A stretch of DNA of 24,000 nt, taken from NCBI GenBank assembly GCA_038874475.1, contig JAVZCJ010000004.1, forward strand, positions 1 through 24,000. Direction: 5' to 3'. A model generated the notes under the pieces. It was not told the DNA's origin. It worked only from the letters and a program-made list of their open reading frames with translations, and did no database searches. The position numbers were made by a program, and so were the translations under genes. This stretch comes from Nitrososphaerota archaeon (GTDB lineage: Archaea > Thermoproteota > Nitrososphaeria_A > Caldarchaeales > JAVZCJ01). The stretch's first letter is position 1. Each line of letters begins with the position of its first letter. Shown one piece after another: positions 3,038 through 23,549 of the stretch.

Positions 3038-4303
3038 TTAAAACAAGTATCTCCTAGGATCCGTTATTCTTCCAGTTATTGCAGATGCTATAACAGTAGC
3101 TGGAGATGCTAAATAAACTTTAGCTTTCGTACTTCCCATTCTTCCTATAAAGTTTCTATTAATAGACGCTATACAAGTTTCTTCATCAGCCAATATTCCC
3201 ATATGCGTTCCTATACAAGCTCCACATGTTGGATTACAAACCAATGCCCCGGCTTTTATGAAGATATCTATTAAACCTTCTTTTAAAGCATTTAAATAAA
3301 TTTCTTGAGAAGCTGGCACAATTATTGTTCTTACATTTTCATTAATTTTTCTATTTTTAACAATTTTTGCAACTAATCTTAAATCTTCTAATCTACCATT
3401 TGTGCATGAACCAATATAAGCTTGATCTATTTCTATTCCTTCTACTTCACTTATAGGTTTAACATTATCAACAGAGCTAGGACAAGCAACTTGAGGTTCA
3501 AGTTTTGAAACATTAAAATCAATTATTTCAGAAAATTCAGCATTAGGATCGCTTTTACAATTCAAATCAATTAATATGTTCTTTTCTTTAAAGTATTGTT
3601 CTGTAATTTTATCTGGCTCAACTATTCCTGTTTTAGCACCCATTTCAACAGCCATATTGCACATAGCCATTCTGCTATCTATTGTCATATTTTCTACTGC
3701 TTCCCCACTAAATATTACAGCCTTATAAACCGCTCCATCAACACTTAATTTGCCTATGATATACAAAATAACATCCTTAGAAGTTATTGGCTCTTTAATT
3801 TTTCCATTTATATTGATTTTCATTGTTTCAGGTACTTTAAGCCATGTTTCTCCTGTTAAAAGTATTGCTGCTACATCTGTAGCTCCCATACCTGTAGCAA
3901 ATGATCCTACAGCTCCATAAGTGCATGTATGAGAATCTGCACCTATTATAAGTTCTCCTGGTATAGCATGCCCTTTCTCAACCATTATTTGATGGCAAAT
4001 TCCTCCTCTGCCTATATCATAAAAATTTTTTATTCCTTGTTCAAAAACAAATTCTCTAATATTTTTCTGATTAAGTGCAGCTCTTTCATTATTTGCTGGA
4101 ACAAGATGATCAAATATAACAATTATTCTTTCAGGATCCCAAACTTTTTTTCCATTCATTTCTTTAAAGCTTTTTAAAGTTAAAGGACCTGTTAAATCAT
4201 GAAACATTACTTTATCTACTTTAGCTTTAATTATTTCACCAGCTTCAACTTTTTCTTTTCCAGCTGCTTTAGATAATATTTTTTCTACAATATTTGAATA
4301 CAT
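3038..4303 (-). CDS. leuC: 3-isopropylmalate dehydratase large subunit (aconitase-family Fe-S dehydratase)
   Basis: 421 aa with GADSHTCTYGA, YIGSCTNGR and NPTCGACIG, which carry the three Fe-S cluster cysteines. The length fits the archaeal-type LeuC/HacA large subunit. Confidence 0.88.
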   Translation of the reverse strand: MYSNIVEKILSKAAGKEKVEAGEIIKAKVDKVMFHDLTGPLTLKSFKEMNGKKVWDPERIIVIFDHLVPANNERAALNQKNIREFVFEQGIKNFYDIGRGGICHQIMVEKGHAIPGELIIGADSHTCTYGAVGSFATGMGATDVAAILLTGETWLKVPETMKININGKIKEPITSKDVILYIIGKLSVDGAVYKAVIFSGEAVENMTIDSRMAMCNMAVEMGAKTGIVEPDKITEQYFKEKNILIDLNCKSDPNAEFSEIIDFNVSKLEPQVACPSSVDNVKPISEVEGIEIDQAYIGSCTNGRLEDLRLVAKIVKNRKINENVRTIIVPASQEIYLNALKEGLIDIFIKAGALVCNPTCGACIGTHMGILADEETCIASINRNFIGRMGSTKAKVYLASPATVIASAITGRITDPRRYLF

Positions 4304-4441
4304 TGCAAATTTCCCTATGGATTATCTGGCTAAATTTTTTAACTAATTATAAAAACCTTTCTAAATAAATTTTTCCCTTTTTTATTTAAACTAAAATTTT
4401 TCAATAGTAAAAATGATTAAAAGAATGAAGAAGATTTAAAA

Positions 4442-5269
4442 TTATTTTTTAGTTTTATTAATTGGAATAAAGTTTAATAATATGCCACTAAAAGTCATGG
4501 AAAAACCACAAACAATGAACATATTTTTTATTAAATCTATTGTTAATGAAGCTACTTCAGGTTTGTATCTAATCGTTAATCCATTATAGATTATATTTAC
4601 TAAAGGTGTAAAATAGAGTGATAAACCTAAAAGAAGCATTATTATTCCAGGTAAAAGTATAGATAATATGAAAAATTTTGCTGGGAATTCTCGACTTAAG
4701 CTTGCATTTCTTACATCTATTGGAGTAATGTTTGGTAAAGCTATTGCTGAAATTTTTATCAAAAATGGCGTTAAAAGAAGCATAAATGGAAGCATTGTTA
4801 CAAACCACCAAATTATTAAAGAAATTGAGAGAAGAACTATGCCATTTATTGAAAGATTTAATCCAAATAGAAAGTTTATTGTTGGAACATATAGAAAAGC
4901 CACAATAGAATTTGCAATTATAAGTACGAAAATAGATGAAGAAATGAATCTTTTCCAATTGAATTTTCCTTTAAGAAGCCATCCATATAAATAGAAGCCG
5001 ATGAAATTTCCAGGAACAGCAGCTACTAAACTTGGTATATAAAGAGTGCCATGCTTTAATGAATCGCATAGAAATGTTCCTATTGCAGCTCCAAGTCCAG
5101 CCGGTATTGGGCCAAATATTATTGCAAAAAATGCGGGTATAATAATCGCAGGTCTAAATTGTCCATAGCCCCAAGGAGATGAAATATATGCTGTTAAATA
5201 AGATCCACTAGCATATAATGCGGCGCAAAAAGCAGTTGCAGATATTATTAGTGATTTTGATTTGACCAT
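4442..5269 (-). CDS. Polytopic membrane protein; the N-terminal half resembles an ECF-transporter S component or QueT-like substrate-capture protein
   Basis: 275 aa and highly hydrophobic, with about 7-8 predicted TM helices. The Gly/Pro-rich segment FRPAIIIPAFFAIIFGPIPAGLGAAIGTFLCD resembles ECF S components. No ECF A or T genes are nearby. The family assignment is tentative. Confidence 0.35.
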   Translation of the reverse strand: MVKSKSLIISATAFCAALYASGSYLTAYISSPWGYGQFRPAIIIPAFFAIIFGPIPAGLGAAIGTFLCDSLKHGTLYIPSLVAAVPGNFIGFYLYGWLLKGKFNWKRFISSSIFVLIIANSIVAFLYVPTINFLFGLNLSINGIVLLSISLIIWWFVTMLPFMLLLTPFLIKISAIALPNITPIDVRNASLSREFPAKFFILSILLPGIIMLLLGLSLYFTPLVNIIYNGLTIRYKPEVASLTIDLIKNMFIVCGFSMTFSGILLNFIPINKTKK

Positions 5270-7243: not shown

Positions 7244-7397
7244 AAAAAAATTTACATATGAAACAATATTTTTTCTTTTATAAAATTAAGGAATAAACCA
7301 TACCAAAAATATCCTATACTATTCTTTAAGAAAAAAGTTTTAAGTAAAACATTTCTTACAAATTGTCATTCTTTTTTTTAAAAAAAGAACCTTTAAG

Positions 7398-7472
7398 CGG
7401 GCCCGGCGGGACTTGAACCCGCGACTTGCGGCTCCGCAGGCCGCTGCCCTATCCATTCTAGGCCACGGGCCC
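7398..7472 (-). tRNA. tRNA-Arg (anticodon GCG), intron-less, 75 nt, no encoded CCA
   Basis: The reverse complement folds cleanly: GGGCCCG UG GCCU AGAAUGGAUA GGGC A GCGGC CUGCGGA GCCGC AAGUC GCGGG UUCAAGU CCCGC CGGGCCC G. Confidence 0.93.
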
Positions 7473-9356
7473 TCACATTTCTTCTATAATTGGCAATCCA
7501 AGTAAATATAAACAATTATTTAATGTTTGCTTAAAAGCAGCCACTATTGCTAATCTATAATTTGTTTCTTTTTCATTAGAAGATATCACTTGACATTTTT
7601 CATAAAAATCATTGAAATATAATGCTAATTGATGTGTATAATTTACTAATTTTTTTATGAAAAGCGTTTTAGCTACTTCTTCTACAATTAATGGAAATAA
7701 AGCAATTTGTCTTATAACATTTCTCTCATACTCGTTTGGCTCTCTAAAAACTTCCACATTTTTATTAAACATTCCTGCTTTTTCAATTATTCTACATGCT
7801 CTTGCAAAAGTATATTGCAAATATGGTCCAGTATTCCCTTCAATTCTCATAGCTTTCTCGCTATCAAATACAATTATTTTATCAGTATCGCTTTTTATTA
7901 ATTCGTACCTTAAAGATGCTATTGCTAAAGCTTCTGAAGTTTTATCTATTTTCTCTATACTCCATTCAGGATGCCTTTTCTTAGTTTCTAAAATAAATTT
8001 TTCTTTTAGCATATTTAATATTTCTTCTACTTTTATGTATATCCCTTTCCTTCCTTCCATATGAATAATTTTTGTTTTTATATCTTTTATTCCAATTTTT
8101 TCAGCATCTTTTGAACTTAAAGAAACTACTTCATATGAGAAATGTATGTATTTTTCAGGATCTATTCCTAAAAGTGATAAAACATATTTTATTATTTCTT
8201 GTGGTCTAGATTGTCTAACATCTATTACAGATATTGCTTTATCACATCTACCAAATTTTTCTTCCATTTTCCCATTAAAATCTGTTATTAATAAAGGTGT
8301 ACCATCTGGATTTTTTGTAAATAAGCTATATTTAAAATCATCGCTTAATAAACCTAGCTTCCAAGCTGCATAAGCAATATCTTTTGCAATATATGTTATT
8401 GTCAAATCACTTCTTAAAAGAACTTCATCTTCTTCTTTAGAAAGAATTGGATGTTTTGATAAATCTATTAACCAACAACCTGCTTTATTCCCTCTTTCTG
8501 AAGGATATATTATTCCCGCCTCTTTTAATTTATTGAACATTTTATTCCATAAACCAAAAACGATTACATCTAATTCTCTATTTATTACATCATATCTTGC
8601 TCCTAATCTCCAACATGTTTTCAATTGATCTTTTAAAACTTTTTCGGCTATTTCTCTATTCAATTTAAATATTTTTGAATTAACATCTTCTATTTCTTTA
8701 AGAATGGTCTTCTTCTTTTTTTCAAGCTCCGAATTTTTTGAAATTAAATTGTTTACTTCAACGTATATTTTATCTCCACAATATTCATCAAATCTAATAC
8801 CTTTAGGTGGCTCCATAGGATATTTAAGCTCTAAAAAGCCTAGTAAAATATCGGCCATTTGACTTCCACTATCGTCTACATAATTTGCAACAATTACTTT
8901 ATATCCTGAGAAATTCAAAATTCTATAAATTGTATCTCCTAAACAAACATTTCTTGCATGACCTATATGCAATGCCTTATTAGGATTAACACTTGTATGT
9001 TCAAGAAAAATTCTTTTGTTTTCACCAATATTTGTTTTTCCATAATCATTTTTAAGTTTTAAAATATTTTTTATAGTAGCTTCAGTATATTTAATCCAAT
9101 CAGCATAAAAATTAATGTATCCAGGAGGTTTAACATCGAAACTTTTTAATAAACCATCTTTTTTAAGAATTATTTTTGAAGAAATTTCTTTAGCATATTC
9201 AATAGGGTTTAAACCTAATTTTTTTGCATCTTCAAAACATGAAATACATGATATTTCTCCAAATTCTATTTTTTTAGGAATTTCTAATATAGGCTTAGAT
9301 AATCCTGCATTTTTAAGAATTTCTTCAGCTTCTTCAAATAAGTATTTTACAGTCAT
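7473..9356 (-). CDS. argS: Arginyl-tRNA synthetase
   Basis: 627 aa. It has the class I HIGH motif (NPNKALHIGHARN), a DALR-type anticodon-binding C-terminal domain, and the conserved C-terminal Met (..PIIEEM). Confidence 0.92.
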   Translation of the reverse strand: MTVKYLFEEAEEILKNAGLSKPILEIPKKIEFGEISCISCFEDAKKLGLNPIEYAKEISSKIILKKDGLLKSFDVKPPGYINFYADWIKYTEATIKNILKLKNDYGKTNIGENKRIFLEHTSVNPNKALHIGHARNVCLGDTIYRILNFSGYKVIVANYVDDSGSQMADILLGFLELKYPMEPPKGIRFDEYCGDKIYVEVNNLISKNSELEKKKKTILKEIEDVNSKIFKLNREIAEKVLKDQLKTCWRLGARYDVINRELDVIVFGLWNKMFNKLKEAGIIYPSERGNKAGCWLIDLSKHPILSKEEDEVLLRSDLTITYIAKDIAYAAWKLGLLSDDFKYSLFTKNPDGTPLLITDFNGKMEEKFGRCDKAISVIDVRQSRPQEIIKYVLSLLGIDPEKYIHFSYEVVSLSSKDAEKIGIKDIKTKIIHMEGRKGIYIKVEEILNMLKEKFILETKKRHPEWSIEKIDKTSEALAIASLRYELIKSDTDKIIVFDSEKAMRIEGNTGPYLQYTFARACRIIEKAGMFNKNVEVFREPNEYERNVIRQIALFPLIVEEVAKTLFIKKLVNYTHQLALYFNDFYEKCQVISSNEKETNYRLAIVAAFKQTLNNCLYLLGLPIIEEM

Positions 9357-11244: not shown

Positions 11245-11303
11245 AATTATTTCTTAAAATTTAAATAATATTATTTAAATTATGTGATTGAAAGGAATAA
11301 AAG

Positions 11304-12027
11304 ATGAATTACAAAAGTAAAGAAAATAAGAGACATAGTAGGTTATTTTATATTTGCATAGTAACATTCCTAACTATAGGATTTATATTCTTTTCTATAT
11401 TTATGAGTACTTTTAGCAAAAATAGGGGCAGCATTTCTATTCCAATATCTTTTCCAATTGTAGCAATAATAATCTTTTATGAGGGCATTATTAGAAAAAG
11501 AGAGTTAAGTGAATTAGGTATTAAAAAAGAAAATTTTTGGAGAAACATTGGAATTGGTATTCTATTAGCATTTTTCGGATTTTTTTATAATGTTTGCTGT
11601 AGTGAAACTTACTATTCCTGATTTGATTGAAGAAATCGGTGGAAGAACTGAGACGATAAGTAATTTCTTTAGATTTAATTTTTCATTTCCTTTAAATTAC
11701 ATTCTTCAAACAATTTATGCTTTTACCTTACTCGCTCCTGCGGAAGAACTTCTATTCAGAGGATTTATTCAAGGTAGGTTACAGAAGTGGATGAATCCTT
11801 ATTTAGCAATCAATATCCAATCTATTCTATATGGGCTAACCCATGGATTTCCTTTATATATGATTGGTTTACCTATTATTCATTGTATAGCTTATGGATT
11901 AATAGGCTTTTTTGGAGGTGTACTCCTTGGTATTGCTTTTTATAAAACAAACAATAATATTGTAGCTTCATGGTTTGCTCATGTAATCTCAGACTCACCT
12001 TTAGCATTATTATTCTTTGAATTTTAG
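11304..12027 (+). pseudogene. CPBP-family intramembrane glutamic endopeptidase (CAAX protease/Abi) interrupted by a +1 frameshift in a T7 run
   Basis: ORF 11304..11621 encodes the N-terminal TM region and ORF 11590..12027 the catalytic part (AEELLFRG, LYGLTHG, FAHVISD). They overlap in different frames. Removing one T from the run at 11580-11586 joins them into one continuous TM helix (..LLAFFGFFIMFAVVKL..). Confidence 0.7.
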
Positions 12028-12109
12028 TGAAATTTTAAAGAAAATACTTATAAATTTTAAAATAAAAGTAATTATTGAATAGTTTTTATATTGTTTTTAG
12101 GTGTAAATT

Positions 12110-14104
12110 GTGGAAAGAAATATAATTGACAAAAGAATTTTCAGAAAATATTTATTGAATAGTTTAATTTTCTTTTTAACAAATTTAATTCTCGCATTAA
12201 TAATGAATTTTTTCTTATTTTATAATCCAATGATTGAAAAATTTAATACCAATCTAAAGAATATAGGTTTTCTTGGAAAATTTCACTCATATATTTTATT
12301 TGTATTAAATGGTTTTGGTAATTCTTTAATGCAACCTAGATATCCTACGTTTAATATAATTTTTGAAAAAATTCCTATAACTTTAATAATAATGTTTTTA
12401 GCTCTTCCAATAGCTATTGTAATAGGGGTATTTATTGGAGCTTTTTCTTCAAGAATTTATAAACATAAGTTGGATTCATTTTTAACCACTTTCATGCTTA
12501 TAGCATATTCTACTCCAGCATGGTTAACCTGCTTATTATTCATAATTTTCTTTGGATGTTACTATAAAATATTTCCAATAGGTGGATTATATAGTGATAA
12601 ATGGATTTCTATTTCACCTTGGACAGATATAATAAGTTTTATAAATGATTTTACATGGCATTTAACTCCTTCAATAATGGTTCTTATTTTATGCCAAATG
12701 GGTTTTTATTTTTTAGTTACAAGGAACAGCATGATAGATATATATGATGAACCATACATTTTATTATGTAAAGCCAAAGGATTAAAAAATAAGACAATAA
12801 TTTTTAAGCATGCTTTAAGAAATGCTATTCTTCAAATAGTTACAATAATTGTTTTTAGTCCAGCAATAATAATGACTGCTGTGATATTTATAGAAATGAT
12901 ATTTTCTAAACCTGGTTTAGGATGGCTTTTATTTATTGCAATGGATAGAGATGATTATCCAGTTCTTCAAGCTACATTCATAGCTCTTACAATAATCACT
13001 TCTGGAATAAGTTTTATTGCTGAATTATTATATGCTTATTTTGATCCAAGAATTAAAAATATGAAAATTGAGAAAACTTTTTTTAATGAAGAAAAGAAAA
13101 TAATTAACTTTCAAAATCTTTTAAATTTTCGAAAATCTTTAAAAATATTTTTCAATAAGAGAAATTTAAAGAAAAGCTTCATTAATTTAAGAAGCTTTCT
13201 AGCATTTTATATAAAATCTTCTAAAGGAATAATTTCTTTTACGATTATGTCATTCTTCATATTATTAGCTATTTTAGCTCCTTATATTCCATATAATCCA
13301 AATGAAATGAATGCATTACAAACTTTCAAACCTCCAAACTTAGAACATTTACTTGGAACGGATGAACTTGGAAGAGATGTTTTTACTCGTTTAGCATGGG
13401 GGTCAAGAGCATCATTGATTGAATGTTTTGGAGCAGTATCTTTATCTATTTTAATAGGATGCGTACTAGGAGCAATTTCAGGATATTATGATAAAAGTTT
13501 TTTATCAATAATAATAGATTTATTTACAAATCTTTTCTTATCAATTCCATTGATAGCATTTGTAGGATTCTTCCCAACAGGTTTTGAAATGAATTTGATT
13601 GAAGGAGAGTTTGATACATGGCTAATAATAGTTTCAAGATCAATTATTTTAACAGGAATAGCTACATGGGGCGTTACAGCTAAACTTGTTAAATCAAAAG
13701 TTATTTCGATTAAAGAAAAAGGATATATAGAAAGTGCTAAAGCTATTGGTGCAAGTAATGAATATGTATTATTTAAACACATTTTTCCTGAAGCTATTAG
13801 AGTAGCTTTTTCAAGTCTTATATATACAGCTGTGATAGCTATAACTATACAATCTGGATTGGATATTCTAGGATATGGCAATCCATGGAGAATAAATCTT
13901 TCAAGAGCTGAGAAGCTTTTAGGCACACCTAAATCGCCAATAATTACTTGGGGAACAATGCTTTCTTGGTCATTTTACTATGGGGCTTCTCTTAAACCTT
14001 GGTGGACAATTGTTCCACCTGGATTATCTTTAATATTGTTAACATTATCTCTAATATTTATTGGAGATGTATTTTCAGATTATTTTAATCCATTTAAAAA
14101 ATAA
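12110..14104 (+). CDS. Fused ABC transporter permease (DppB/OppB-like N-half plus DppC/OppC-like C-half, peptide/nickel family)
   Basis: 664 aa with a GTG start and AGGTG about 6 nt upstream. The N-half carries CKAKGLKNKTIIFKHALRNAILQIVT and ends ..FDPRIK. The C-half carries LLGTDELGRDVFTRLAWGSRASL and ESAKAIGASNEYVLFKHIFPEAI. Confidence 0.8.
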   Translation: MERNIIDKRIFRKYLLNSLIFFLTNLILALIMNFFLFYNPMIEKFNTNLKNIGFLGKFHSYILFVLNGFGNSLMQPRYPTFNIIFEKIPITLIIMFLALPIAIVIGVFIGAFSSRIYKHKLDSFLTTFMLIAYSTPAWLTCLLFIIFFGCYYKIFPIGGLYSDKWISISPWTDIISFINDFTWHLTPSIMVLILCQMGFYFLVTRNSMIDIYDEPYILLCKAKGLKNKTIIFKHALRNAILQIVTIIVFSPAIIMTAVIFIEMIFSKPGLGWLLFIAMDRDDYPVLQATFIALTIITSGISFIAELLYAYFDPRIKNMKIEKTFFNEEKKIINFQNLLNFRKSLKIFFNKRNLKKSFINLRSFLAFYIKSSKGIISFTIMSFFILLAILAPYIPYNPNEMNALQTFKPPNLEHLLGTDELGRDVFTRLAWGSRASLIECFGAVSLSILIGCVLGAISGYYDKSFLSIIIDLFTNLFLSIPLIAFVGFFPTGFEMNLIEGEFDTWLIIVSRSIILTGIATWGVTAKLVKSKVISIKEKGYIESAKAIGASNEYVLFKHIFPEAIRVAFSSLIYTAVIAITIQSGLDILGYGNPWRINLSRAEKLLGTPKSPIITWGTMLSWSFYYGASLKPWWTIVPPGLSLILLTLSLIFIGDVFSDYFNPFKK

Positions 14105-14109
14105 TAATT

Positions 14110-14439
14110 TTACTTAAGATCTTTCATTATTTTCTTAAAAATATAAAAAATTATAAAAGCTATAATCACTCCTAGAAAATTACTTCCTAAATCAAAAATA
14201 TTGGAATTCCTCCATGGTATAATTAATTGTAATATTTCTGTTAAAGGTGTTAAAGCTATTGAAATAAATAAAGCCTTAGAATTAAAACCTATTGCATAAA
14301 CCCATAGAATTGATAAAATAAAATATGAAAAAATATGTCCAATACTTAAAAATTTATCATATCCTTCTGGTACTGGTAAAATGGATGCTATTGCAATTAA
14401 AAGGGTCCACATTATAGCAATAAATTTTTTCATGTTCAC
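14110..14439 (-). CDS. VanZ-like small membrane protein
   Basis: 109 aa with 4 TM helices. The pattern DK..H...Y followed by LTEILQLIIPWRNSNIFDLGSNFLGV matches the VanZ family. Confidence 0.55.
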   Translation of the reverse strand: MNMKKFIAIMWTLLIAIASILPVPEGYDKFLSIGHIFSYFILSILWVYAIGFNSKALFISIALTPLTEILQLIIPWRNSNIFDLGSNFLGVIIAFIIFYIFKKIMKDLK

Positions 14440-14586
14440 TTTAAATCATAATTCTAAAATAATCATTATATTTATAATTAATTTTTCTTTTTTTAAAAAA
14501 AAGAAGTTTAAGAGTTTTTAAGTATTTGATAATCATTTTTAAAAGTTTAATATCTCCCTTTTTTTAAAAGAAAATTTTGAATTTAA

Positions 14587-15360
14587 ATGAAAATTATGGT
14601 ATGTGGTAAAGGCGGTACAGGAAAAACTGCTTTAACAGTTCTTATTGCTAAGATTTTATCAAAATATTTTAAAGTTTACATAATCGATTCTGATGAATCA
14701 AACATAGTTTTACCAATACTTTTAGGCGTAGCTGCACCAAAATCTTTAGTAGAATATATAGGTGGAAAAAAAGAAGAGGAAGAATTTGAAAAAATGGAAA
14801 CAGATATAGCCAAAGCTTTAACTAAAGCAAAAGAAGGGATAAAACTCAATTTATTGCCATCTAATTATATTTCTTTTTCTAATGAAGGAATAGGATTAGT
14901 TATTATAGGAAAAGTTAGAGAATATGGTGAAGGATGTGCATGCCCATTTAATATACTTACGAAAATATTGTTAAGTAATTTAGCATTAGATAAAAATGAA
15001 GTTGTTTTAGTAGATACAGATGCTGGAGTAGAACATGTTGGCAGAAAAATTGAAGAAGTAAGCGATTGCATAATAGCTATAGTAGATCCTACGATAGAAT
15101 CTCTTGAAATAGCATTATTATTGAAAAAGATTGCTTCAAATTTAAATAAAAAATTTTGGATTATAGCTAATAAAATTACAAATGAAATCAGAGACATATT
15201 AATAAAAGAAGCAGAAAATATGGGATTAAAAATAGATGGAATTGTAAGATTTGATAAGAAGATGTATCTTTCATATTTGAAAAGGGAACCTTTAAAAGCT
15301 GGTGTAGCATTAATAGATTTAGAAAAAATATTAAAAAATTTAAATTTAATAATATCATAA
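14587..15360 (+). CDS. CooC-family (COG3640-type) SIMIBI/MinD-like P-loop ATPase, putative metallocentre (Ni) insertion accessory protein
   Basis: It has a deviant Walker A at the N-terminus (CGKGGTGKT), then IIDSDESN, the CxC metal motif (GEGCACPFN), and DTDAGVEHVGRK. All are typical of CooC/AcsF-type maturation ATPases. Confidence 0.7.
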   Translation: MKIMVCGKGGTGKTALTVLIAKILSKYFKVYIIDSDESNIVLPILLGVAAPKSLVEYIGGKKEEEEFEKMETDIAKALTKAKEGIKLNLLPSNYISFSNEGIGLVIIGKVREYGEGCACPFNILTKILLSNLALDKNEVVLVDTDAGVEHVGRKIEEVSDCIIAIVDPTIESLEIALLLKKIASNLNKKFWIIANKITNEIRDILIKEAENMGLKIDGIVRFDKKMYLSYLKREPLKAGVALIDLEKILKNLNLIIS

Positions 15361-15371
15361 ATTGATCAGCC

Positions 15372-16574
15372 TTGAAATTAGATTGGTTATTAATAAAAGC
15401 TAAAGAAATATTATATGAAAATTTAAAAGAATATGGAAAACATAAAATTGTTGTTCCACATCTTAATGGCTATCCTATACCATATTGTTGGGATACAGCT
15501 TTTCATGTATTAGCTTTATCACATATCGATCCATTACTTGCTAAAGAAAATATTGAAGCTCTCCTTTCTTTACAAAAAGAAGATGGTATGATTCCAAATG
15601 CTCCTATAGAAGTATACAATCAAGATTTAAGAAGTCAGCCACCTATTATAATATACGCAGTAAACTATTATTCAAATGTAACAAAAGATTTTGAAAGTTT
15701 AAAAAATTGGTATCCTAAATTAAAGAAGTTTTATGAATGGTGGAATAATTATGGTGATCCAATAGATTCAATTAATGGACTTGTAAGCCCATTTACCGGT
15801 GCAAGAGAAGAAAGTCCAATGATGGCATATTGGGCCATATGCTCAACTGGCATGGACAATCATGCTTTATATGATTTTGCTAATGGAAAAACTTTAAAAA
15901 GAAATGGATTTTATTATATACCAATCGAAGACCTTTTACTTAATAATGTTCTTGCTGCAAGTGCTGAAGCTTTATTTGAAATTGCTAATAAATTGGGAAT
16001 AGAAAATGATGCAAAAAATTTTCAATATGAATATCACAAAAAAGCCTCGCTTATTAATAAATATATGCGGTTTGAAAAAGAAAGTTTTTATTATCCTATT
16101 GATTGGAAAGGAAATATTGTTAAAGTTAAATCTATACAAGCATTCATGCCATTATTTTCTAAAATATTAGATAATGAAAGTGTTTCCCATCTTATTTCCC
16201 ATCTTACTTCTTCAAAAGAGTTCTGGGGAAAATATGGAATACCAACAATAGCTTTTGACGATGGAAAATATATGTCACCTCAGCCATCTTGGTTATATTC
16301 TTTAGATCCATATTATTGGAGAGGGCCAATATGGGCTCCTACAACTTATCTTGTTTTTAAAGGCTTATTAAATTATGGTTATAAAGAAATTGCTAAAAAA
16401 TTAGCAACAAAATGGTTTAATTTAATTAATAAAACAAAAGTTTTTGCTGAATATTATTATGAAGATGGTAAACCAGGTTTAACAGGTCTTTATAATTTTG
16501 GATGGACAGCAGCAGTAACAATTACTCTCGCAATAGAAAGCAATTTAATAAAATCTAAAACATTTATGAATTAA
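15372..16574 (+). CDS. (alpha/alpha)6-barrel glycoside hydrolase, GH63/GH37-like (trehalase or glycosylglycerate hydrolase type)
   Basis: 400 aa. TTG is the only start available after the in-frame stop at 15363. Motifs are YCWDTAFHVLAL, QKEDGMIPN and YYWRGPIWAPTTYLVFKGLLNYG. It lies 11 nt downstream of the CooC-like gene. Confidence 0.5.
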   Translation: MKLDWLLIKAKEILYENLKEYGKHKIVVPHLNGYPIPYCWDTAFHVLALSHIDPLLAKENIEALLSLQKEDGMIPNAPIEVYNQDLRSQPPIIIYAVNYYSNVTKDFESLKNWYPKLKKFYEWWNNYGDPIDSINGLVSPFTGAREESPMMAYWAICSTGMDNHALYDFANGKTLKRNGFYYIPIEDLLLNNVLAASAEALFEIANKLGIENDAKNFQYEYHKKASLINKYMRFEKESFYYPIDWKGNIVKVKSIQAFMPLFSKILDNESVSHLISHLTSSKEFWGKYGIPTIAFDDGKYMSPQPSWLYSLDPYYWRGPIWAPTTYLVFKGLLNYGYKEIAKKLATKWFNLINKTKVFAEYYYEDGKPGLTGLYNFGWTAAVTITLAIESNLIKSKTFMN

Positions 16575-16596
16575 AAATAATGAATTTCTTAATCTT

Positions 16597-17934
16597 TTAT
16601 ATCTTCTTCTTTCCAAGAGGATAATATTTTGCCGCGATTAAGAATACAACTAAAGCTATTATTATTACAAGAGCTAAACCAATACGCATGTTCCATATTA
16701 CTTCACTAGGTTGTACTGCTCCAGGTACATATCCACTTAATCCAAAAATGAAGGCGGTACTTGCACCTGTAAGAGCTAAAGCAAATCTATCAATAAATGT
16801 ACGTGCACCATAGTATATTCCTTCTCTTCTTAAACCTGTTTTATTAGCATCTTCATCTATCACATCTGGTATTAAGAGCTCCCTAGTAATTTGCACACCA
16901 CTATTCACAGCACCAAAGAAAGCTGTTAATATAATAGCTTTTATTATGGAATCTGCCCAAAATGCAAGTACCAATAGTCCAGAAGCCATTAATATTGTAG
17001 AAAGAATTAATGTAAATCTAGAGCCATAGCGTATACAAATTTTTCTCCAAATTGGATAAAATAGTATTGGAAAAATTATCATTGGTGCACCTACAATTGT
17101 TATATCGCTAGTTTTTCCCCCAAGGAAATGTTGGACGATGAATGGTATCATTGCTTCAAGAACGCTCCATATCCAGCTTGTTGTTAAAATTAGAAAAGCT
17201 GCTGTTAAAAAAGACTTATTTGTAAAAGTAATTTTAAAATATTCTTTAATGGGAAGTTTAGATTCTACTGAAGTTACTTCTCTCTCTTTACTTCCAAGAA
17301 GAGATAATAGAAATGATATTCCACCCATTAAACTTACTACTATTCCTACAAAAGTCCATCCTTGAAAAGTACCGAAATTTTCTGTAAAATACGTTATCAA
17401 TTGAGGAGTAAGTATTATTGTTATTATGATGCCAATTGTTGCAAAAATTTGTCTATATACTGCAACTTCACTTCTATCTGTAATATCTCTATACATTTCA
17501 GGAAATAACGCATTCCATCCTACATCAACAAGAGTATAAACAAATTCGAAAATAAAAATAACAATAATAAAGAATGTGAAAATACAAGGATCGAAAGGAT
17601 TGGATAAAGGCTTTCCACCAACTGGAGGAGACCATATCATTATGAATAACAAAATCATTATTGGTGAAAATATAGAAACATAAGGTATTCTTCTTCCCCA
17701 TCTAGTCCTTGTTTTATCAGAAATATATCCTGCAATTACATCATTTATTGCATTCCAAACACCATAAGTTGCCATAAATCCTATTCCAATTAAAACTGGA
17801 TCAAGAAGAACGATTTCGCTATAAAAATATATTAAATATGTTCCTATAATAGCAAATATTAAAGATTCTCCAAAAGCACCTGCTCCATATACTATTTTTC
17901 CAGTTTTTCCACTAAATCTACCTATAATAGGCAA
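16597..17934 (-). CDS. GPH-family (glycoside-pentoside-hexuronide:cation symporter, MelB/YicJ-like) MFS transporter
   Basis: 445 aa with about 12 TM helices. The family motif is NAINDVIAGYISDKTRTRWGRRIPY. The start is TTG with GGTGAT 5 nt upstream, 15 nt after the stop of the methyltransferase gene. Confidence 0.75.
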   Translation of the reverse strand: MPIIGRFSGKTGKIVYGAGAFGESLIFAIIGTYLIYFYSEIVLLDPVLIGIGFMATYGVWNAINDVIAGYISDKTRTRWGRRIPYVSIFSPIMILLFIMIWSPPVGGKPLSNPFDPCIFTFFIIVIFIFEFVYTLVDVGWNALFPEMYRDITDRSEVAVYRQIFATIGIIITIILTPQLITYFTENFGTFQGWTFVGIVVSLMGGISFLLSLLGSKEREVTSVESKLPIKEYFKITFTNKSFLTAAFLILTTSWIWSVLEAMIPFIVQHFLGGKTSDITIVGAPMIIFPILFYPIWRKICIRYGSRFTLILSTILMASGLLVLAFWADSIIKAIILTAFFGAVNSGVQITRELLIPDVIDEDANKTGLRREGIYYGARTFIDRFALALTGASTAFIFGLSGYVPGAVQPSEVIWNMRIGLALVIIIALVVFLIAAKYYPLGKKKI

Positions 17935-17949
17935 ATAACATCACCTTCT

Positions 17950-19077
17950 TCATTTATACCTTCCATATTTATCTCTTACTTCAGAAATTTTAAGTAAATT
18001 TTCTTCTGGAGTATTTGGACTCAATCCACATCCAGGGCCAAGCGCAAAAGATATGCAATTTTTTCCTAATTCTATTGAATTTTTTACCATTAATTCAACA
18101 TCTTTGGGCGTACCAGAGAAAAGTGGTCCAAGATGATCAATTCCAGCACAAAGTGGAATTTTATCACCAAATTTTTCAACAGCTTTTTCTAATGGATAAG
18201 TTGATCCTGGAGCATAAAATTGCAATTCATTTATAAGTTTAGGTTTTCCAAATTTTTCATATATAAAATCTAAATCTGGATCCCAACTACAAACATGAGT
18301 TGTAATAGGAACATCTTTACCTATTCTTGATCTAACTTTATTTAAATATTCTAAATCTAATGCAGCTAACCATTCTCTTAAATCTGGGCTTAAAATAGAT
18401 TTATCATATCCACTAAATCCCATACAAAAATTTGTAAAATTGATTGCTTCTACCATTTTATATGCTACATCAACTGTCCATTCCATTAAAGGCCCTCTAA
18501 CTATTCTTGTTAAAGTAGGAAGTAAATCTGGAAATATCATAACATCTCTCATTACTTCGGTCATTCCAATCGTTAAAGCTAAAGTTGCAGCAGGTCCAAG
18601 TATTCCTTGTCTTAAAAGGACTTTATTCCCAATTTTTTCTGCAACAATCTTCCATGCTTCAAATATTGCTTCAGCTCTTTTACATTTTCTAGGATCAAAT
18701 TCTTCTATGTTTTTTTCAATCCTTTCTACTTTTTCAATAAATCTATCATAAATACTGTGATCTGGTTTATAACGCCATGGTTGAATCTTTGCTTGTACAA
18801 CATGATCTAAAATTTCAACTTCAGCACCCAATATTTCATACATAACCCATTGATCTGTATTCACACCTGTAATATCAACTCTAAATTTTTCAGCTACAGC
18901 TATATGCCCTCTTGCTATGGCTTTTCCATCATAAACATATTCTCTTAAACTTGGCACACCAGAATATTTCCAAGCTAAATAAACAGATTCTAACCATATT
19001 GGCATTTTATCTGGTTTTTCTCCATTCAGATAAGTTAAAGCTCTTTCGAGACCTGTAATTTCAACCATATTTTTCAC
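17950..19077 (-). CDS. URO-D superfamily methyltransferase, MtaA/MtbA/MtsA-like (methylcobamide-dependent, Zn-thiol type)
   Basis: 375 aa. It has the N-terminal LNGEKPDKMPIW pattern, the H-x-C motif (THVCS), and a distal Cys in LGPGCGLSPNTPEENL, consistent with the MT2 Zn ligand set. The start is either GTG 19077 or ATG 19068, and AAGGAGGT lies just upstream inside the corrinoid gene. Confidence 0.7.
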   Translation of the reverse strand: MKNMVEITGLERALTYLNGEKPDKMPIWLESVYLAWKYSGVPSLREYVYDGKAIARGHIAVAEKFRVDITGVNTDQWVMYEILGAEVEILDHVVQAKIQPWRYKPDHSIYDRFIEKVERIEKNIEEFDPRKCKRAEAIFEAWKIVAEKIGNKVLLRQGILGPAATLALTIGMTEVMRDVMIFPDLLPTLTRIVRGPLMEWTVDVAYKMVEAINFTNFCMGFSGYDKSILSPDLREWLAALDLEYLNKVRSRIGKDVPITTHVCSWDPDLDFIYEKFGKPKLINELQFYAPGSTYPLEKAVEKFGDKIPLCAGIDHLGPLFSGTPKDVELMVKNSIELGKNCISFALGPGCGLSPNTPEENLLKISEVRDKYGRYK

Positions 19078-19693
19078 GTACCTCCTTAACTAATTTATTT
19101 GCAATTTCTAAAGCAGTTTTAGGATCATGAGCCCAACCATCTAATTCAAATTTTTTAGCTACAAATGGATTACCTTGTACACCTCCTATTATAACCTTAA
19201 CTTTATCTCTTAAATTATTCTCTTTTAAGAATTTAATTATTTTCTCTATTTCAAATATTGCATTTGTTAAAAATACTGAAAGCCCAATTAAGTGAGGCTC
19301 GAATTCTTTTATGCCTTTTATAAAATCTTCCGCCATTAAATTTTCACCCAAATCTTTAACTTCAAAACCATCTGCTATATACAATACTTTTATAATATCT
19401 TTTCCTATGTAATGCATGGAGCCTAACGTCCCTATTAAAATTCTACCTTTATCCATTTTTTCAATTTTATCTTTTAGAATTTCATAACCCATGTAAAAAG
19501 ATGCCATTATTGCAGAAAGTTGTGGGAGTGCAAATTCTTTACCATATTTATCACATGCATCAAAAATTGCTTTTCTTAAGCTATTAAGAATTTCATTAGG
19601 ATCCGCCCCGATTGAAAGAAGATGTTTAATCTCTTTTTCTACTTCAAATGGTTTAAATTCCATGGCTAGTTTATATATCTTATTTTCCATCAT
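19061..19693 (-). CDS. Corrinoid (B12-binding) protein, MtaC/MtbC/MtsB-like, with an atypical S-x-H-x-x-G motif
   Basis: 210 aa. It has an N-terminal helical cap plus a Rossmann B12-binding domain: GSMHYIGKD (19403-19420), LSVFLT and IIGGV. It overlaps the downstream methyltransferase start. Confidence 0.75.
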   Translation of the reverse strand: MMENKIYKLAMEFKPFEVEKEIKHLLSIGADPNEILNSLRKAIFDACDKYGKEFALPQLSAIMASFYMGYEILKDKIEKMDKGRILIGTLGSMHYIGKDIIKVLYIADGFEVKDLGENLMAEDFIKGIKEFEPHLIGLSVFLTNAIFEIEKIIKFLKENNLRDKVKVIIGGVQGNPFVAKKFELDGWAHDPKTALEIANKLVKEVREKYG

Positions 19694-19812
19694 TATTACC
19701 TAAAAATTCTATTATCTAATAAGGATATTTAAACATTTTTATTATTTAATAAATTAAAACAGGAATTATAAATATATAAGTTAATTAAGGTAATAAATTT
19801 TTTTAAAAGTGT

Positions 19813-20916
19813 ATGGTTATGAATGGCCAAAAAGAATGGGAGAAAAATAATGAAAGATTCTTAGCAACTTTAAATCTCGAAGAAAGTGATAGAGTTCCAA
19901 TTATGGATATAGTAAATAATGAAAAAATTAGAAAAATTGTTGAAACAAAAGATCCTCTTGAAACAAATGCAAGAGCATACAGATATTTAGGTATAGACAT
20001 AACTAGAGATTATTGGTGGCTTACAGATTTCATGTGGTTTAAAAATAAGTTTTTTGAATGGATGGATGTTTTAGGAATTGAAAAAGAAGGATGGGCTATT
20101 AAAACAAAAGCAGGAACTACATGGATTGATAAAAGACCCTTTAAAAATTTAGAAGAACTTAGTAATAAACTTCCTCCAGAACCAGATGAAAGTAAAATAG
20201 CAGAATGGTTTATTCCATATCATAAAAAAACTATTGAAGGATATAAGAAGCATGGCATAGTATTTGTAGGAAATTTTGAAGGCCCATTAACTGAAGCTTA
20301 TATGTTTACAGGTTATGATTTATTCTTTCAAGCCATGTTTATGGCGAAGAGTATAGTAAATAAACTTTTAGATATTTTTGAAAAATGGATAATAATTAGA
20401 CTTAAGCTTTGGGTAGAAGAAAATATGGGCGATGTAGTATTCTTAGGAGAAGATATAGCTTTTGATAAAGGGTTAATGTTCTCTCCTAAATGGCTTAATG
20501 AAAATTGGTTTCCAAGAATTAAACGTATAAGAGACTTTCTTTTTAGTAAAAATATAAAGATGATATTTCATAGTGATGGAAACCTTTATCCAATTTTAGA
20601 TACATTGGTTTTTGACCTAAAAATAGATGCATTGCACCCAATAGATCCAACAGCAGGAATGAAAATAGATGAAGTTAAAGAAAAATATGGAAATCATATT
20701 GCCTTAATTGGTTATATAGATTGTAGTCATCTCTTACCATTTGGAACAACAAAAGAAATAGTTGAAAAAGTAAAAGAAACATTATCTATAGCTGCTCCAG
20801 GCAGTGGTTATATTTTAGGGTCAAGTAGTGAAATACATGATGCTATATCTATAGAGAATGCAAAAGCTTTATATGAAACAGGAAGAAAATATGGTAAATA
20901 TCCAATTAAAAGGTGA
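19813..20916 (+). CDS. URO-D superfamily methyltransferase-like protein lacking the Cys-based Zn site
   Basis: 367 aa. It has the N-terminal FLATLNLEESDRVPIMD pattern and a C-terminal IFHSDGNLYPILD...IDALHPIDP...GYILGSSSEIHD fold pattern of PF01208-type proteins. The whole protein contains a single Cys. Confidence 0.65.
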   Translation: MVMNGQKEWEKNNERFLATLNLEESDRVPIMDIVNNEKIRKIVETKDPLETNARAYRYLGIDITRDYWWLTDFMWFKNKFFEWMDVLGIEKEGWAIKTKAGTTWIDKRPFKNLEELSNKLPPEPDESKIAEWFIPYHKKTIEGYKKHGIVFVGNFEGPLTEAYMFTGYDLFFQAMFMAKSIVNKLLDIFEKWIIIRLKLWVEENMGDVVFLGEDIAFDKGLMFSPKWLNENWFPRIKRIRDFLFSKNIKMIFHSDGNLYPILDTLVFDLKIDALHPIDPTAGMKIDEVKEKYGNHIALIGYIDCSHLLPFGTTKEIVEKVKETLSIAAPGSGYILGSSSEIHDAISIENAKALYETGRKYGKYPIKR

Positions 20917-20923
20917 GCGCATA

Positions 20924-21571
20924 GTGCAAAATGATATATTAAAAGAAATACAAGAAGCTTTATTATCAATGGACATAGAAAAAACTTTACTATTAACTAG
21001 AAGAGCTTTAGAGCAAGGATTGAATCCTATAAAAATAATAGAAGATGGGCTTTCAAATGGTATAAGAAAATTAGGAAATATGTATGAAAATGGAGAAGCT
21101 TTTTTGCCAGAACTTGTTATGGGTGCTGAAATTATGAAAAGAGCTGTAGAAATCGTTAAACCTGAATTGGAAAAAAGAAAGGAAGAAAGAAAAAAGCTTG
21201 GAAAAGTTATGCTAGCTACAGTTGAAGGAGATGTACATGATATAGGAAAAAATTTGGTGTCTCTTATGCTTTGGATTAATGGATTTGAAATAATAGATTT
21301 GGGTGTGGATGTCCCAGTAAGAGAAATAATTAAAAAGATTAAAGAATTAAAACCTGATGTTTTAGGTTTATCGGCACTTCTTACAACTACATTATTAGAA
21401 CAGAAAAGAGTTTTAGAAGAATTAGAAAAAGCTGGGTTAAGAAAAAATGTAAAAGTAATTGTAGGAGGAGCACCTGTTACTGAAGAATGGGCTAAAAAAA
21501 TAGGAGCAGATAGTTATGCTCCAGATGCTGTTAAAGCTGTAGATAAAGTAAAAGAGCTTTTAAAATCATAA
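20924..21571 (+). CDS. Corrinoid (B12-binding) protein, canonical MtaC/MtbC/MtmC type
   Basis: It has canonical GDVHDIGKN (from 21230), LSALLTT and VGGAP motifs. I prefer the GTG at 20924 as start, because AGGTGA at 20911-20916 overlaps the upstream stop. The track start at 20858 would overlap the upstream gene by 59 nt. Confidence 0.85.
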   Translation: MQNDILKEIQEALLSMDIEKTLLLTRRALEQGLNPIKIIEDGLSNGIRKLGNMYENGEAFLPELVMGAEIMKRAVEIVKPELEKRKEERKKLGKVMLATVEGDVHDIGKNLVSLMLWINGFEIIDLGVDVPVREIIKKIKELKPDVLGLSALLTTTLLEQKRVLEELEKAGLRKNVKVIVGGAPVTEEWAKKIGADSYAPDAVKAVDKVKELLKS

Positions 21572-21575
21572 ATTT

Positions 21576-21953
21576 TTATTCTTCTTCGTCAACATGTGCT
21601 TTTCCAAAGTATTTTTCAATAGGATATTTTTCTTCATTCTTCTTAATTTTATTTAAAACAGCTTTCGTAATATCTATTTTTGCATTTTCACTCATACTTA
21701 GCAAATAAATAATTATATCTGCAATCTCTTCTGAAATTCTTATTTTAAATTTTTCATTTTCCATTAATTTTTCTATTTCTTCACTATTTCTCCATTGAAA
21801 TATTTCTAATAATTCTGCAGCTTCGATACAAATAGATTCCGCTAAATCTTTTAAATTATGGTATTTCTCCCAATCTCTTTTTTTAATAAAAACTTTAACT
21901 TCTTCTTTTAATTCATTAAGAGTTGTATTCATATCTTCTTTCATTTTTTTCAC
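21576..21953 (-). CDS. MazG-like nucleoside triphosphate pyrophosphohydrolase (all-alpha NTP-PPase, DCTPP1-like)
   Basis: 125 aa with EAAELLEIFQW and EEIADIIIYL acidic metal-binding helices. Confidence 0.7.
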   Translation of the reverse strand: MKKMKEDMNTTLNELKEEVKVFIKKRDWEKYHNLKDLAESICIEAAELLEIFQWRNSEEIEKLMENEKFKIRISEEIADIIIYLLSMSENAKIDITKAVLNKIKKNEEKYPIEKYFGKAHVDEEE

Positions 21954-22067
21954 TCTATTTTTATTGAATTTAATAAAAATCTTTCAATAAAAATAAATAA
22001 TAAAAAGTTTATTAATATGATGATTTTTTATAATACATTAGTGCTTTCTTTTGGAGGTAAAATATTT

Positions 22068-23549
22068 TTGAAATTTATTGGTAGAATAGCTGATGGTTCT
22101 ACAGAAACCTCTGCTAGAGTTATTTTATTAAAAAATTTAGAAAGGGAAATAACTGCTGAAAATCTTGTTCTTATTAAGAATGGTGGAGATGAAAAACCGT
22201 CAAATCAATTATTGGGCGTTCTTAGAGGTGGATTGGGTAAAAACGAATTTCTTAGTCATACATCTTATAGGCCTGATGTTGCATATATGAAATATGGTGG
22301 AGAACCATCTGGTGCTAGAGAAGTTTTTTCTTTCTTAATTAAACCAATAGGTGCTATTACTGAAAATGGAATAGAGCCAAATTTATCTATAATTCAACCA
22401 AGGTCTCCAGTATACCTTTTAGAAGAAAAAGATAATCCTTTTCAATTAATGGTAAAAGGAGAAGATATTATTTGGACAGATGCATACATAGAAGGACATG
22501 AATCTTGGAAAGTACCAATAAAGAAATTTTTTATTCCTTATCATGTAGGTGTTTATGGGAGTACTGGTAGCGGTAAATCTTGGTTTACACGTTATATACT
22601 TATACCATTATACATCAAATCTGGATATAAAGTACTTGTATTAGATTGGAGTGGTACTGACTATGCACCTTATTACCAAAATTCAGATAATGCTGAAGTT
22701 ATAAAAATTACTGATATAGCTTTAGATGAAGAATCGATTTTAAGTTATTTTGATGATAAAACTAATGGTTTTGGAAGGAATGAGAATGTTAAAGATGGTT
22801 TTGATTCATTTATTGAAGGATGGATTGAAAAAATAAAAAATGCTATTGAAATTTCAAAAAAAGAAGGAGGAGATCCTGCTGAAATTTTATATAAACAACT
22901 TAAGAAACAAGTTAATGAAACTATTTCTAGTATGAGAAGAGAAGATTGGAAAAGTTCTGCTGAAAGAGCTAATAAAAGAGTATTTAGAAGATTTAAACCT
23001 CAAGATTTAAAACCAATAATGGGAACAATAAGTATAGAAGAAGTTATAAAAAAATTTGAAAATAAAAATTTAATCATTATAGATATGGGGGGAATTTTAA
23101 CAGAGGCTAAACTTGGTTTTTTCCTTTCTCTCTCTAGATATCTTTATGGCTTAATGGAAATTGGAAAAAATTTAATGATAAGTTTAATAATGGATGAAGC
23201 TCCTCAATACGCTCCTTGGGACCCAAGAGGCATTCAAAGTGAAACAACTGAAATGATAAAAAATTTAGCTGCTTTAGGAAGGAAAAGAATGCTTAATTTA
23301 ACTCTTATAGCTCAAGGAATAAAAGGGGAAATTGGGATAAATGCAGCTGTAAGAAGAAATTTAAATACTCATTTCTTTGGAAGGATACATCCATTAGATG
23401 CTGGAGGGGAAGGTGGGGCTTCAGAATGGCTATCACCTTATGATATAACATCTGATCAATTGTTACAACTTAAACCTGGAAGATTCTATTTCTCAGGAGC
23501 TATGAATGTATCACCAGTTCCATTACTTATAACATATAAAATTGAGTGA
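22068..23549 (+). CDS. HerA-like (DUF87/FtsK-HerA superfamily) ATPase with an N-terminal HAS-barrel-like domain
   Basis: Walker A is GVYGSTGSGKSW and Walker B is LISLIMDEAPQY. The N-terminal beta-rich domain is FIGRIADGS...VLRGGLG. I prefer the TTG at 22068 as start because GGAGGT lies about 9 nt upstream. The track start is 22017. Confidence 0.75.
   Translation: MKFIGRIADGSTETSARVILLKNLEREITAENLVLIKNGGDEKPSNQLLGVLRGGLGKNEFLSHTSYRPDVAYMKYGGEPSGAREVFSFLIKPIGAITENGIEPNLSIIQPRSPVYLLEEKDNPFQLMVKGEDIIWTDAYIEGHESWKVPIKKFFIPYHVGVYGSTGSGKSWFTRYILIPLYIKSGYKVLVLDWSGTDYAPYYQNSDNAEVIKITDIALDEESILSYFDDKTNGFGRNENVKDGFDSFIEGWIEKIKNAIEISKKEGGDPAEILYKQLKKQVNETISSMRREDWKSSAERANKRVFRRFKPQDLKPIMGTISIEEVIKKFENKNLIIIDMGGILTEAKLGFFLSLSRYLYGLMEIGKNLMISLIMDEAPQYAPWDPRGIQSETTEMIKNLAALGRKRMLNLTLIAQGIKGEIGINAAVRRNLNTHFFGRIHPLDAGGEGGASEWLSPYDITSDQLLQLKPGRFYFSGAMNVSPVPLLITYKIE

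Follow-up and report, generated by a model that had tools for sequence, protein, structure and literature searches.

The stretch of DNA analysed here, called the window, comprises 24,000 nucleotides (nt) from an uncultured Nitrososphaerota archaeon of hot-spring type (GenBank assembly GCA_038874475.1, contig JAVZCJ010000004.1, positions 1 to 24,000). Between positions 16597 and 21571 it carries two methyltransferases (MT) related to uroporphyrinogen decarboxylase (URO-D), each paired with its own corrinoid protein (CoP), and a transporter of the GPH family. The minus-strand genes (CoP-minus, MT-minus and the GPH symporter) are referred to as module A and the plus-strand genes (MT-plus and CoP-plus) as module B. 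These are two independent corrinoid methyl-transfer modules, which are neighbours through a 4.4-kb insertion or deletion. Locus numbers (L0xx) denote the genome and metagenome contigs compared with the window.

All five open reading frames (ORFs) are present where an earlier note on this DNA had placed them, and its domain calls were borne out by a Pfam search (PF13347, PF01208, PF02310 and PF02607). The same gene strings recur on dozens of independent contigs, and synteny in the closest representative genome, an uncultured Nitrososphaeria metagenome-assembled genome (MAG; L012), is identical to that of the window. In NCBI the exact matches of the five proteins are the consecutive entries MEM3407479-83, which bear generic names only. 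The features of the locus are as follows.

14587..15360, plus strand: CooC-family P-loop ATPase, 257 amino acids (aa); matches PDB CooC1 3kje over its full length (1.5e-21), with Cys-x-Cys aligned
15360..19794, both strands: module A cassette (glycosidase, GPH symporter, MT-minus and CoP-minus), absent from the colinear L033
15372..16574, plus strand: glycoside hydrolase (GH), GH63-related/MGH1-like, 400 aa; PF22422 (2.2e-48), with trehalase and GH63 C-terminal matches; convergent with the transporter gene
16597-17934, minus strand: GPH symporter, 445 aa; PF13347 MFS_2 (1.3e-64); third gene of the minus operon
17950-19077, minus strand: MT-minus ORF; PF01208 URO-D (1.3e-20); corrected gene 17950..19068, 372 aa
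19061-19693, minus strand: CoP-minus, 210 aa; PF02310 B12-binding (1.5e-13)
Within the spacer 19694-19812, minus strand: TATA-like element TTTAAATA, beginning 40 nt upstream of the CoP-minus ATG
Within the spacer 19694-19812, plus strand: TATA-like element TATAAATATATAA, 34-46 nt upstream of the MT-plus ATG
19813-20916, plus strand: MT-plus, 367 aa (365 aa in NCBI, from the second ATG); PF01208 (5.3e-22)
20858-21571, plus strand: CoP-plus ORF; PF02310 and PF02607; corrected gene 20924..21571, 215 aa

The cassette indel and the gene junctions

The independence of the two modules is seen in L033, a contig from a sister lineage (86% nucleotide identity, GC content 27%), which aligns by blastn with positions 14132-15359 and 19795-21493 of the window and skips 15360-19794. 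The plus module is present in L033 and the minus module is absent. The modules adjoin only in the window's own species group (L008, L009, L012 and L034), and relatives with 60-89% identical MT-minus proteins carry the trio of CoP, MT and MFS_2 genes in quite different neighbourhoods without the plus module. The earlier note had treated the locus as a divergent double unit; as a conserved unit this does not stand, with adjacency found in one species group, the plus module only in L033 and the minus module only in other relatives. The note had also overlooked the glycosidase gene at 15372-16574 as a member of the minus-strand cassette, which is gained or lost together with the trio.

Directly preceding the plus module in L033 is a CooC-like gene (4025-4792), 116 nt upstream of MT-plus and with no carbon monoxide dehydrogenase (CODH) gene nearby. 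CooC1 is the nickel-insertion chaperone of CODH, and a role of the CooC-like ATPase in maturation or reactivation of the corrinoid system is conceivable.

The genes of each module are closely spaced. An overlap of 17 nt had been claimed between CoP-minus and MT-minus, which relies on a GTG at 19077. MT-minus starts at the ATG at 19068, preceded 11 nt upstream by GGAGGT, and is 372 aa long from there in all homologues and in NCBI; the overlap is therefore 8 nt. The gap of 15 nt reported between MT-minus and the GPH symporter gene is correct (17935-17949), and GAAGGTGA sits 6 nt ahead of the TTG start of the latter gene. CoP-plus most likely starts at GTG 20924, giving a protein of 215 aa as in NCBI and in relatives, and its Shine-Dalgarno motif, AGGTGA, does overlap the TGA stop codon of MT-plus. 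The spacer between the divergent modules is AT-rich as described, spanning 119 nt (19694-19812) with 12.6% GC against 28.4% for the window; in close relatives it is only about 76 nt long. The TATA-like matches face both ways in this spacer, which at 12.6% GC is weak evidence.

Zinc sites, corrinoid loops and enzyme identities

The AlphaFold2 model of MT-minus (pLDDT 92.7) has MtaA as its best Foldseek match (TM score 0.82), ahead of uroporphyrinogen decarboxylases. His258, Cys260 and Cys347 align with the HxC...C zinc ligands of MtaA (PDB 4ay7) and are invariant in an alignment of 22 sequences. The URO-D barrel with a His-x-Cys...Cys zinc site, by which MtaA, MtbA and CmuA are recognized, is found in MT-minus only and not in MT-plus. 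Identity of MT-minus to the soluble coenzyme M methyltransferases (MtaA/MtbA/MtsA; PDB 4ay7) is 21-22%. With the curated MtaA/MtbA/CmuA models (TIGR01463, NF004889, NF040654 and NF041608), whose cut-offs are 235-600 bits, MT-minus scores 31-57 bits and MT-plus 36-55 bits; neither enzyme is orthologous to a curated characterised family, in keeping with the earlier description of the system as uncharacterised. The MT-minus family forms a small isolated clade, in which one representative scores 478 bits and the next 186 bits among 1.84 billion representatives, and it is followed in similarity by MtaA/CmuA-like proteins that fall below threshold. On the MtaA/CmuA subfamily model MT-minus reaches 39 bits, compared with 110-158 bits for the nearest outgroups.

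To the same family belongs P0145, a 212-aa fragment from Candidatus Bathyarchaeota archaeon BA1 (47% identity), which is annotated as 'methylcobalamin:coenzyme M methyltransferase'. Because the family is otherwise seen in non-methanogen contexts beside sugar genes, this annotation may make the case for methylotrophic methanogenesis in that MAG look stronger than it is.

CoP-minus has two domains and can be aligned from end to end with the Moorella corrinoid protein 1y80 (7e-23). In its cobalt-ligand loop G-S-M-H-Y-I-G replaces the canonical G-D-x-H-D-I-G, so that the His is kept and both Asp are lost, and the motif G-T-L-G-S-x-H-Y-x-G-K-D is conserved across its archaeal and bacterial orthologues. 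The protein falls below TIGR02370 (88 bits, cut-off 215) and has no D-x-H-x-x-G motif. Loss of both Asp may weaken ligation by the His and so ease reduction of Co(II) without a RamA-type activase.

In module B, His253-Ser-Asp255 and Ser337-339-Glu340 of MT-plus occupy the ligand positions of MtaA, with HxC replaced by HxD and Cys by Ser/Glu. H253, D255, S337-S339, E340 and C304 are invariant in the MT-plus family (23 sequences). CoP-plus is canonical, with D-V-H-D-I-G, a score of 229.8 bits on TIGR02370 (cut-off 215.3) and PDB matches to MttC 7xcn (7.6e-59) and 1y80 (8e-53). According to the literature on the UroD superfamily, His-Cys-Cys sites belong to S/Se-methyltransferases, and O-methyltransferases replace the Cys by carboxylates or non-ligands. 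By this rule MT-plus is of the O-type and MT-minus of the S-type.

Neither methyltransferase is HemE, as the assignment of both to corrinoid methyl transfer had implied. No match to the hemE model (TIGR01464) was found at E<=0.01, and PDB profile searches favour MtaA, with 2e-13 against 3e-3 for HemE in the MT-plus family, and 1e-10 for MtaA and no HemE match in the case of MT-minus. A broader alternative is that no methyl transfer takes place. The B12-binding proteins would then act in sensing or regulation, and the URO-D-fold proteins would be decarboxylases or other sugar-metabolism enzymes. Distant relatives of MT-plus (about 34-39% identity) in Moorella and Armatimonadota, whose loci contain sugar ABC, GH65 and GH38 genes and no corrinoid protein, point in this direction, as does the loss of both Asp of the canonical motif from CoP-minus. 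Both corrinoid proteins, however, have the cap-plus-Rossmann structure of methyltransferase corrinoid proteins, keep the His and possess no DNA-binding domain; MT-minus keeps all zinc ligands of MtaA, coupling of CoP and MT is universal in its family, and neither enzyme matches hemE models. This alternative is accordingly considered very improbable.

Genomic neighbourhoods of the two modules

Loci related to module A were collected by a scan of representative genomes and metagenomes seeded with an alignment of 16 MT-minus sequences, which gave 65 loci, archaeal and bacterial, in 31 dereplicated groups. A CoP gene lies directly upstream of the MT-minus orthologue in 27 of the 31 groups, and contig ends or ORF filtering account for the other four (in group 24, for example, the CoP is visible in L026). 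Overlaps of 1-13 nt between the two genes are common. In four groups (0, 11, 15 and 22) a different URO-D paralog is found within 5 kb of the MT-minus orthologue.

Such paralogs, and the presence in the window of complementary ligand types side by side on a shared AT-rich spacer, could be explained if both modules formed one chain, in which MT-plus (O-type) would demethylate a methoxy substrate onto a CoP and MT-minus (S-type) would pass the methyl group to a thiol, in the manner of the MT1 and MT2 of methanogens and as the double locus of the earlier note implies. Each methyltransferase has, however, its own translationally coupled CoP, and the modules are adjacent in one species group, with L033 carrying the plus module alone and about 30 other groups the minus module alone. 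A single chain is therefore held to be quite unlikely.

The GPH transporter is conserved with the CoP and MT genes. MFS_2 genes occur within 5 kb in 13 groups, among them 10 of the 11 archaeal groups whose flanks could be used, and the products from bacterial loci are 44-47% identical to the window transporter; ECF or SBP_bac_5 ABC importers take its place in other groups. Almost every such CoP/MT pair has a transporter beside it, and many have enzymes of carbohydrate or cyclitol metabolism nearby. The window transporter scores 218.7 bits on PF13347 (cut-off 27) and 208.2 bits on TIGR00792, just under the cut-off of 231.35. It aligns over its full length with MelB 4m64 (7.6e-24) and keeps Y120, T121, D124, N58 and D59, with D19 replaced by S, K18 by E and D55 by N.

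Glycosidases of several families accompany module A in independent lineages. The best PDB matches of the window glycosidase are TTHA0978, YgjK and the mycobacterial glucosylglycerate hydrolase, and its score on the NCBIfam model GluglyHdase is 74 bits, below the cut-off of 550. MGH1-like GH genes follow the orthologous methyltransferase within the operon in Dehalococcoidia L027 and L022. GH38 alpha-mannosidases lie near module A orthologues in three groups, those of Ca. Hakubella, of group 23 (Nitrospinota L028 and the metagenome contigs L055 and L069) and of Bacillota. GH29 fucosidase with an esterase, and GH51, are also among the neighbours, and GT4 glycosyltransferases are found in five archaeal groups. 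Cyclitol and sugar metabolism is represented by IolN equivalogs at one archaeal and one bacterial locus (530 and 557 bits, cut-off 245), by AP_endonuc_2 TIM-barrel proteins and NagA, and by GFO_IDH_MocA dehydrogenases, of which the one in L004 has levoglucosan dehydrogenase as its best NCBIfam match (399 bits, cut-off 650). The annotated neighbours of module A include no genes for sulfur or selenium metabolism, an activase, a pterin methyltransferase or Mcr. The idea that the substrate is an imported methylated or methoxylated organic compound, put forward before from the transporter, is strengthened by the recurrence of glycosidase, cyclitol and sugar-transport neighbours.

Two further arrangements were observed near module A orthologues. 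FMN_red-type flavoproteins, possible electron donors for corrinoid reduction, adjoin the corrinoid gene in both Thermofilaceae loci (L004 6442-7212 and L020 8701-9219). In Dehalococcoidia L022 (7151-9202), the CoP/MT pair is immediately preceded by genes for a SAM-dependent methyltransferase and a DUF2284 protein; arsenite-methyltransferase selenoproteins have a DUF2284 part to which the latter is related.

Orthologues of MT-plus with 50-56% identity are found in loci with two or three further URO-D paralogs, together with Peripla_BP_4/BPD_transp_2 sugar ABC systems, PfkB kinase, KDPG aldolase, MR_MLE dehydratase and a fucose-isomerase domain. A CoP gene stands beside the MT-plus orthologue in L010 and L011 and is next but one in L032, in gene orders that differ from that of the window. 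Moorella thermoacetica (CP017019; L029 7001-10358) encodes three consecutive URO-D paralogs of the ligand classes HSD/SSSE, HSD/HNIQ and HSC/HNIQ, followed by DUF4432 and a sugar ABC transporter, with no CoP within 7 kb. The three classes recur in L010, L011 and L032.

A Pfam scan of the window ORFs confirmed that no MT1 of the MtaB, MtmB, MtbB or MttB type and no RamA-type gene lies in the window. Every ORF of at least 310 aa was assigned to other families, and the sole sizeable unassigned ORF (306 aa) has no Pfam match. The surroundings of the modules are ordinary chromosomal, with genes for isopropylmalate/isocitrate dehydrogenase, aconitase-family subunits, arginyl-tRNA synthetase (ArgRS) with an abutting tRNA-Arg, OCD and HerA. 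No spacer separates the tRNA-Arg(GCG) gene (7397-7472) from the stop codon of the ArgRS gene (7473-9356); both genes are on the minus strand. Downstream of the plus module are a MazG-like pyrophosphohydrolase and then HerA (DUF87), at 21576-23549 and onward, with NurA next in relatives; this arrangement is kept in L008 and L012. A second indel relative to L033, and partly to L008 and L012, covers 11253-14131 and contains two small ORFs and a 664-aa fused ABC permease (two BPD_transp_1 domains and OppC_N).

Known systems and the proposed function

The closest architectural precedent for module A is mtpCAP of Methanosarcina acetivorans, and the closest fold and ligand set those of MtaA. In mtpCAP, which serves the use of methylmercaptopropionate, the MT2-family enzyme MtpA is a substrate-specific demethylase encoded beside a CoP and an MFS transporter. 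The order CoP, MT2-family URO-D methyltransferase, MFS is the same in both, with no MT1 or activase in the operon (MtpA is compared by its description), and an operon with this gene content is therefore not without precedent. The window operon likewise consists of CoP, MT and MFS_2 genes, joined by the 8-nt overlap and the 15-nt gap, and the set is kept in 10 of 11 informative archaeal groups. Module A differs from mtpCAP in its host, a Nitrososphaerota MAG of non-methanogen type, in the GPH/MFS_2 nature of the transporter, in the glycosidase of the cassette, in the SxHY motif of CoP-minus and in the distance of MT-minus from the curated MtaA/MtbA/CmuA models (31-57 bits). With MtaA, MtbA and MtsA (PDB 4ay7) it shares the URO-D TIM-barrel, the His-x-Cys...Cys zinc ligands and an MtaC-like CoP partner, whereas the low identity (21-22%), the isolated clade, the lack of an MtaB, MtmB, MtbB or MttB partner and of any known CoM or Mcr context set it apart; no MT1 or mcr gene was found in the window or in the annotated neighbourhoods of module A.

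Other systems are less close. Type 1 mlp clusters (Kountz and Balskus, PMC10418091) combine MtaA-like His-Cys-Cys enzymes and a CoP in non-methylotrophs, without a tetrahydrofolate methyltransferase and with sulfur/selenium genes alongside. Module A shares with them an MtaA-like His-Cys-Cys enzyme and a CoP outside methylotrophs, but the window has one such enzyme, no activase and carbohydrate neighbours. Membership of these clusters was rejected on the basis of the single His-Cys-Cys enzyme per locus and the lack of a Ram/RACE-type gene in the window and annotated neighbours. The Mtv/Odm/Mto/Cdm O-demethylases (MtvB/OdmB/VdmB/MtoB and CdmB 9rui) resemble module B in pairing a UroD-superfamily MT I with a CoP and in the non-Cys residues at the zinc positions of MT-plus; they differ in length (about 430 aa against 367 aa for MT-plus), and the neighbours of the MT-plus relatives are sugar rather than aromatic genes. 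Membership of MT-plus in the MtvB/MtoB/CdmB clade was also rejected, as CdmB is matched only at 5e-3 over 140 C-terminal residues and the window has no MtrH/MeTr-type or activase gene. The Bathyarchaeia O-demethylase 'MtgB', about 300 aa long and according to its authors without homology to known MT1, is unrelated.

The likeness to mtpCAP bears on whether the methyl group of module A comes from sulfur. MT-minus could belong to a system for methylthioethers or methylselenides, like those of MtsA, MtpA and Mlp, in which zinc would bind the S (or Se) of the imported compound and both half-reactions may be catalysed by the one enzyme, with a thiol as acceptor. The invariant His-Cys-Cys site, which is reported to be a hallmark of S/Se-methyltransferases within the UroD superfamily, agrees with this, as do the gene order shared with mtpCAP, whose MtpA is specific for methylmercaptopropionate, and the lack of a separate MT1 in the window. 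The neighbours, however, include no sulfur- or selenium-metabolism gene, and glycosidases, glycosyltransferase, IolN and sugar dehydrogenases recur among them; the transporter is of the GPH type and keeps D124, Y120 and T121 of the MelB sugar site, and MT-minus has only 39 bits on the MtaA/CmuA subfamily model, on which its nearest outgroups reach 110-158. A sulfur or selenium substrate is thus regarded as unlikely. As individual substrates, 5-methylthioribose, selenosugars, arsenosugars and S-methylated glycosidic thiols had been suggested by the His-Cys-Cys site, by the one DUF2284 and SAM-methyltransferase neighbour and by the NagA neighbours; they were not adopted, there being no consistent sulfur, selenium or arsenic gene context.

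In gene content, fold, ligand conservation, behaviour as a cassette and neighbourhood statistics, the system is real and conserved; it is uncharacterised, and its substrate class is predicted from gene context only. The reading to which we give about an even chance is that module A takes up a methyl-bearing glycoside or cyclitol, deglycosylates it and demethylates it by way of a corrinoid, and that module B O-demethylates a methoxy sugar. The GPH cation symporter would import a methyl-bearing glycoside or cyclitol-type compound, which the GH63/MGH1-like glycosidase would trim. MT-minus would then move the methyl group onto Co(I) of CoP-minus, acting as a substrate-specific 'MT1' like MtpA with MtpC; the zinc would hold the substrate through its leaving oxygen or sulfur, or else bind a thiol acceptor. 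CoP-minus would in turn give up the methyl group to sulfide or a thiol, or to a second methyltransferase encoded elsewhere. We infer this direction of transfer, the acceptor and the re-reduction of Co(II), as well as the class of substrate, for which O-methyl is favoured over S-methyl. In module B, MT-plus with its oxygen-type His-Asp...Glu site and CoP-plus would most likely O-demethylate a methoxy sugar; the clade to which the module belongs lies within loci for the use of sugars and sugar acids.

Several points weigh against this proposal. Under the ligand rule, the substrate of MT-minus may be a thioether, or the enzyme may bind a thiol acceptor, in place of a sugar ether. The glycosidases near module A belong to several families with differing specificities, so that no substrate can be named. 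No RamA/RACE activase, pterin-type MT2 or Mcr was found in the window or in annotated neighbourhoods, and the pathway is therefore incomplete at the level of the locus. Many distant members of the MT-plus family have no neighbouring CoP, and the B12 dependence of the wider family is thus not assured. Finally, the functional evidence amounts to guilt by association only. As to the first of these points, MtaB activates methanol through a Cys-containing zinc site; if this is right, a His-Cys-Cys site does not exclude an aliphatic ether as substrate. In favour of the proposal, one study (PMC10946705) reports that cobalamin-dependent methyltransferases can use thiols as traps for ether-derived methyl groups, a single MT and corrinoid pair being sufficient.

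A more specific proposal, which is put forward tentatively and is judged less probable than the general one, is that aliphatic methyl ethers of sugars or cyclitols may be demethylated by module A in a corrinoid-dependent, oxygen-independent manner, which would make it the first demethylase of this kind. The Cys2His zinc site of an MtaA-like enzyme would act as Lewis acid on the ether oxygen, as the zinc of MtaB does with methanol, and the methyl group would pass to an Asp-less, His-on corrinoid and from there to sulfide or a thiol with no RamA-type activase, the whole being encoded, with an importer and a glycosidase, in a mobile cassette that Thermoproteota, Dehalococcoidia, Actinomycetota, Nitrospinota and Bacillota would share. 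A literature search found no description of corrinoid- or cobalamin-dependent demethylation of methylated sugars or polysaccharides, and only O2-dependent P450s were found as sugar demethylases. The 6-O-methyl-D-galactose demethylase of marine bacteria is such a cytochrome P450, which works oxidatively and releases formaldehyde (PMC6292453). Its role, the removal of a methyl group that blocks sugar catabolism, is the one proposed here; it differs from the window system in belonging to an unrelated protein family, and the window system would carry out an anaerobic methyl transfer.

Glycans of plants, algae and microbes commonly contain methylated sugars and cyclitols, whose catabolism is blocked by the methyl group. 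The cassette is small, with four genes, is conserved across domains and can be tested directly with recombinant proteins. An anaerobic corrinoid route, if true, would extend B12-dependent methyl transfer to a new class of substrates. It would also explain the MtaA-like genes of non-methanogenic archaea and bacteria, and would caution against reading MtaA-like genes in MAGs as evidence of methylotrophic methanogenesis.

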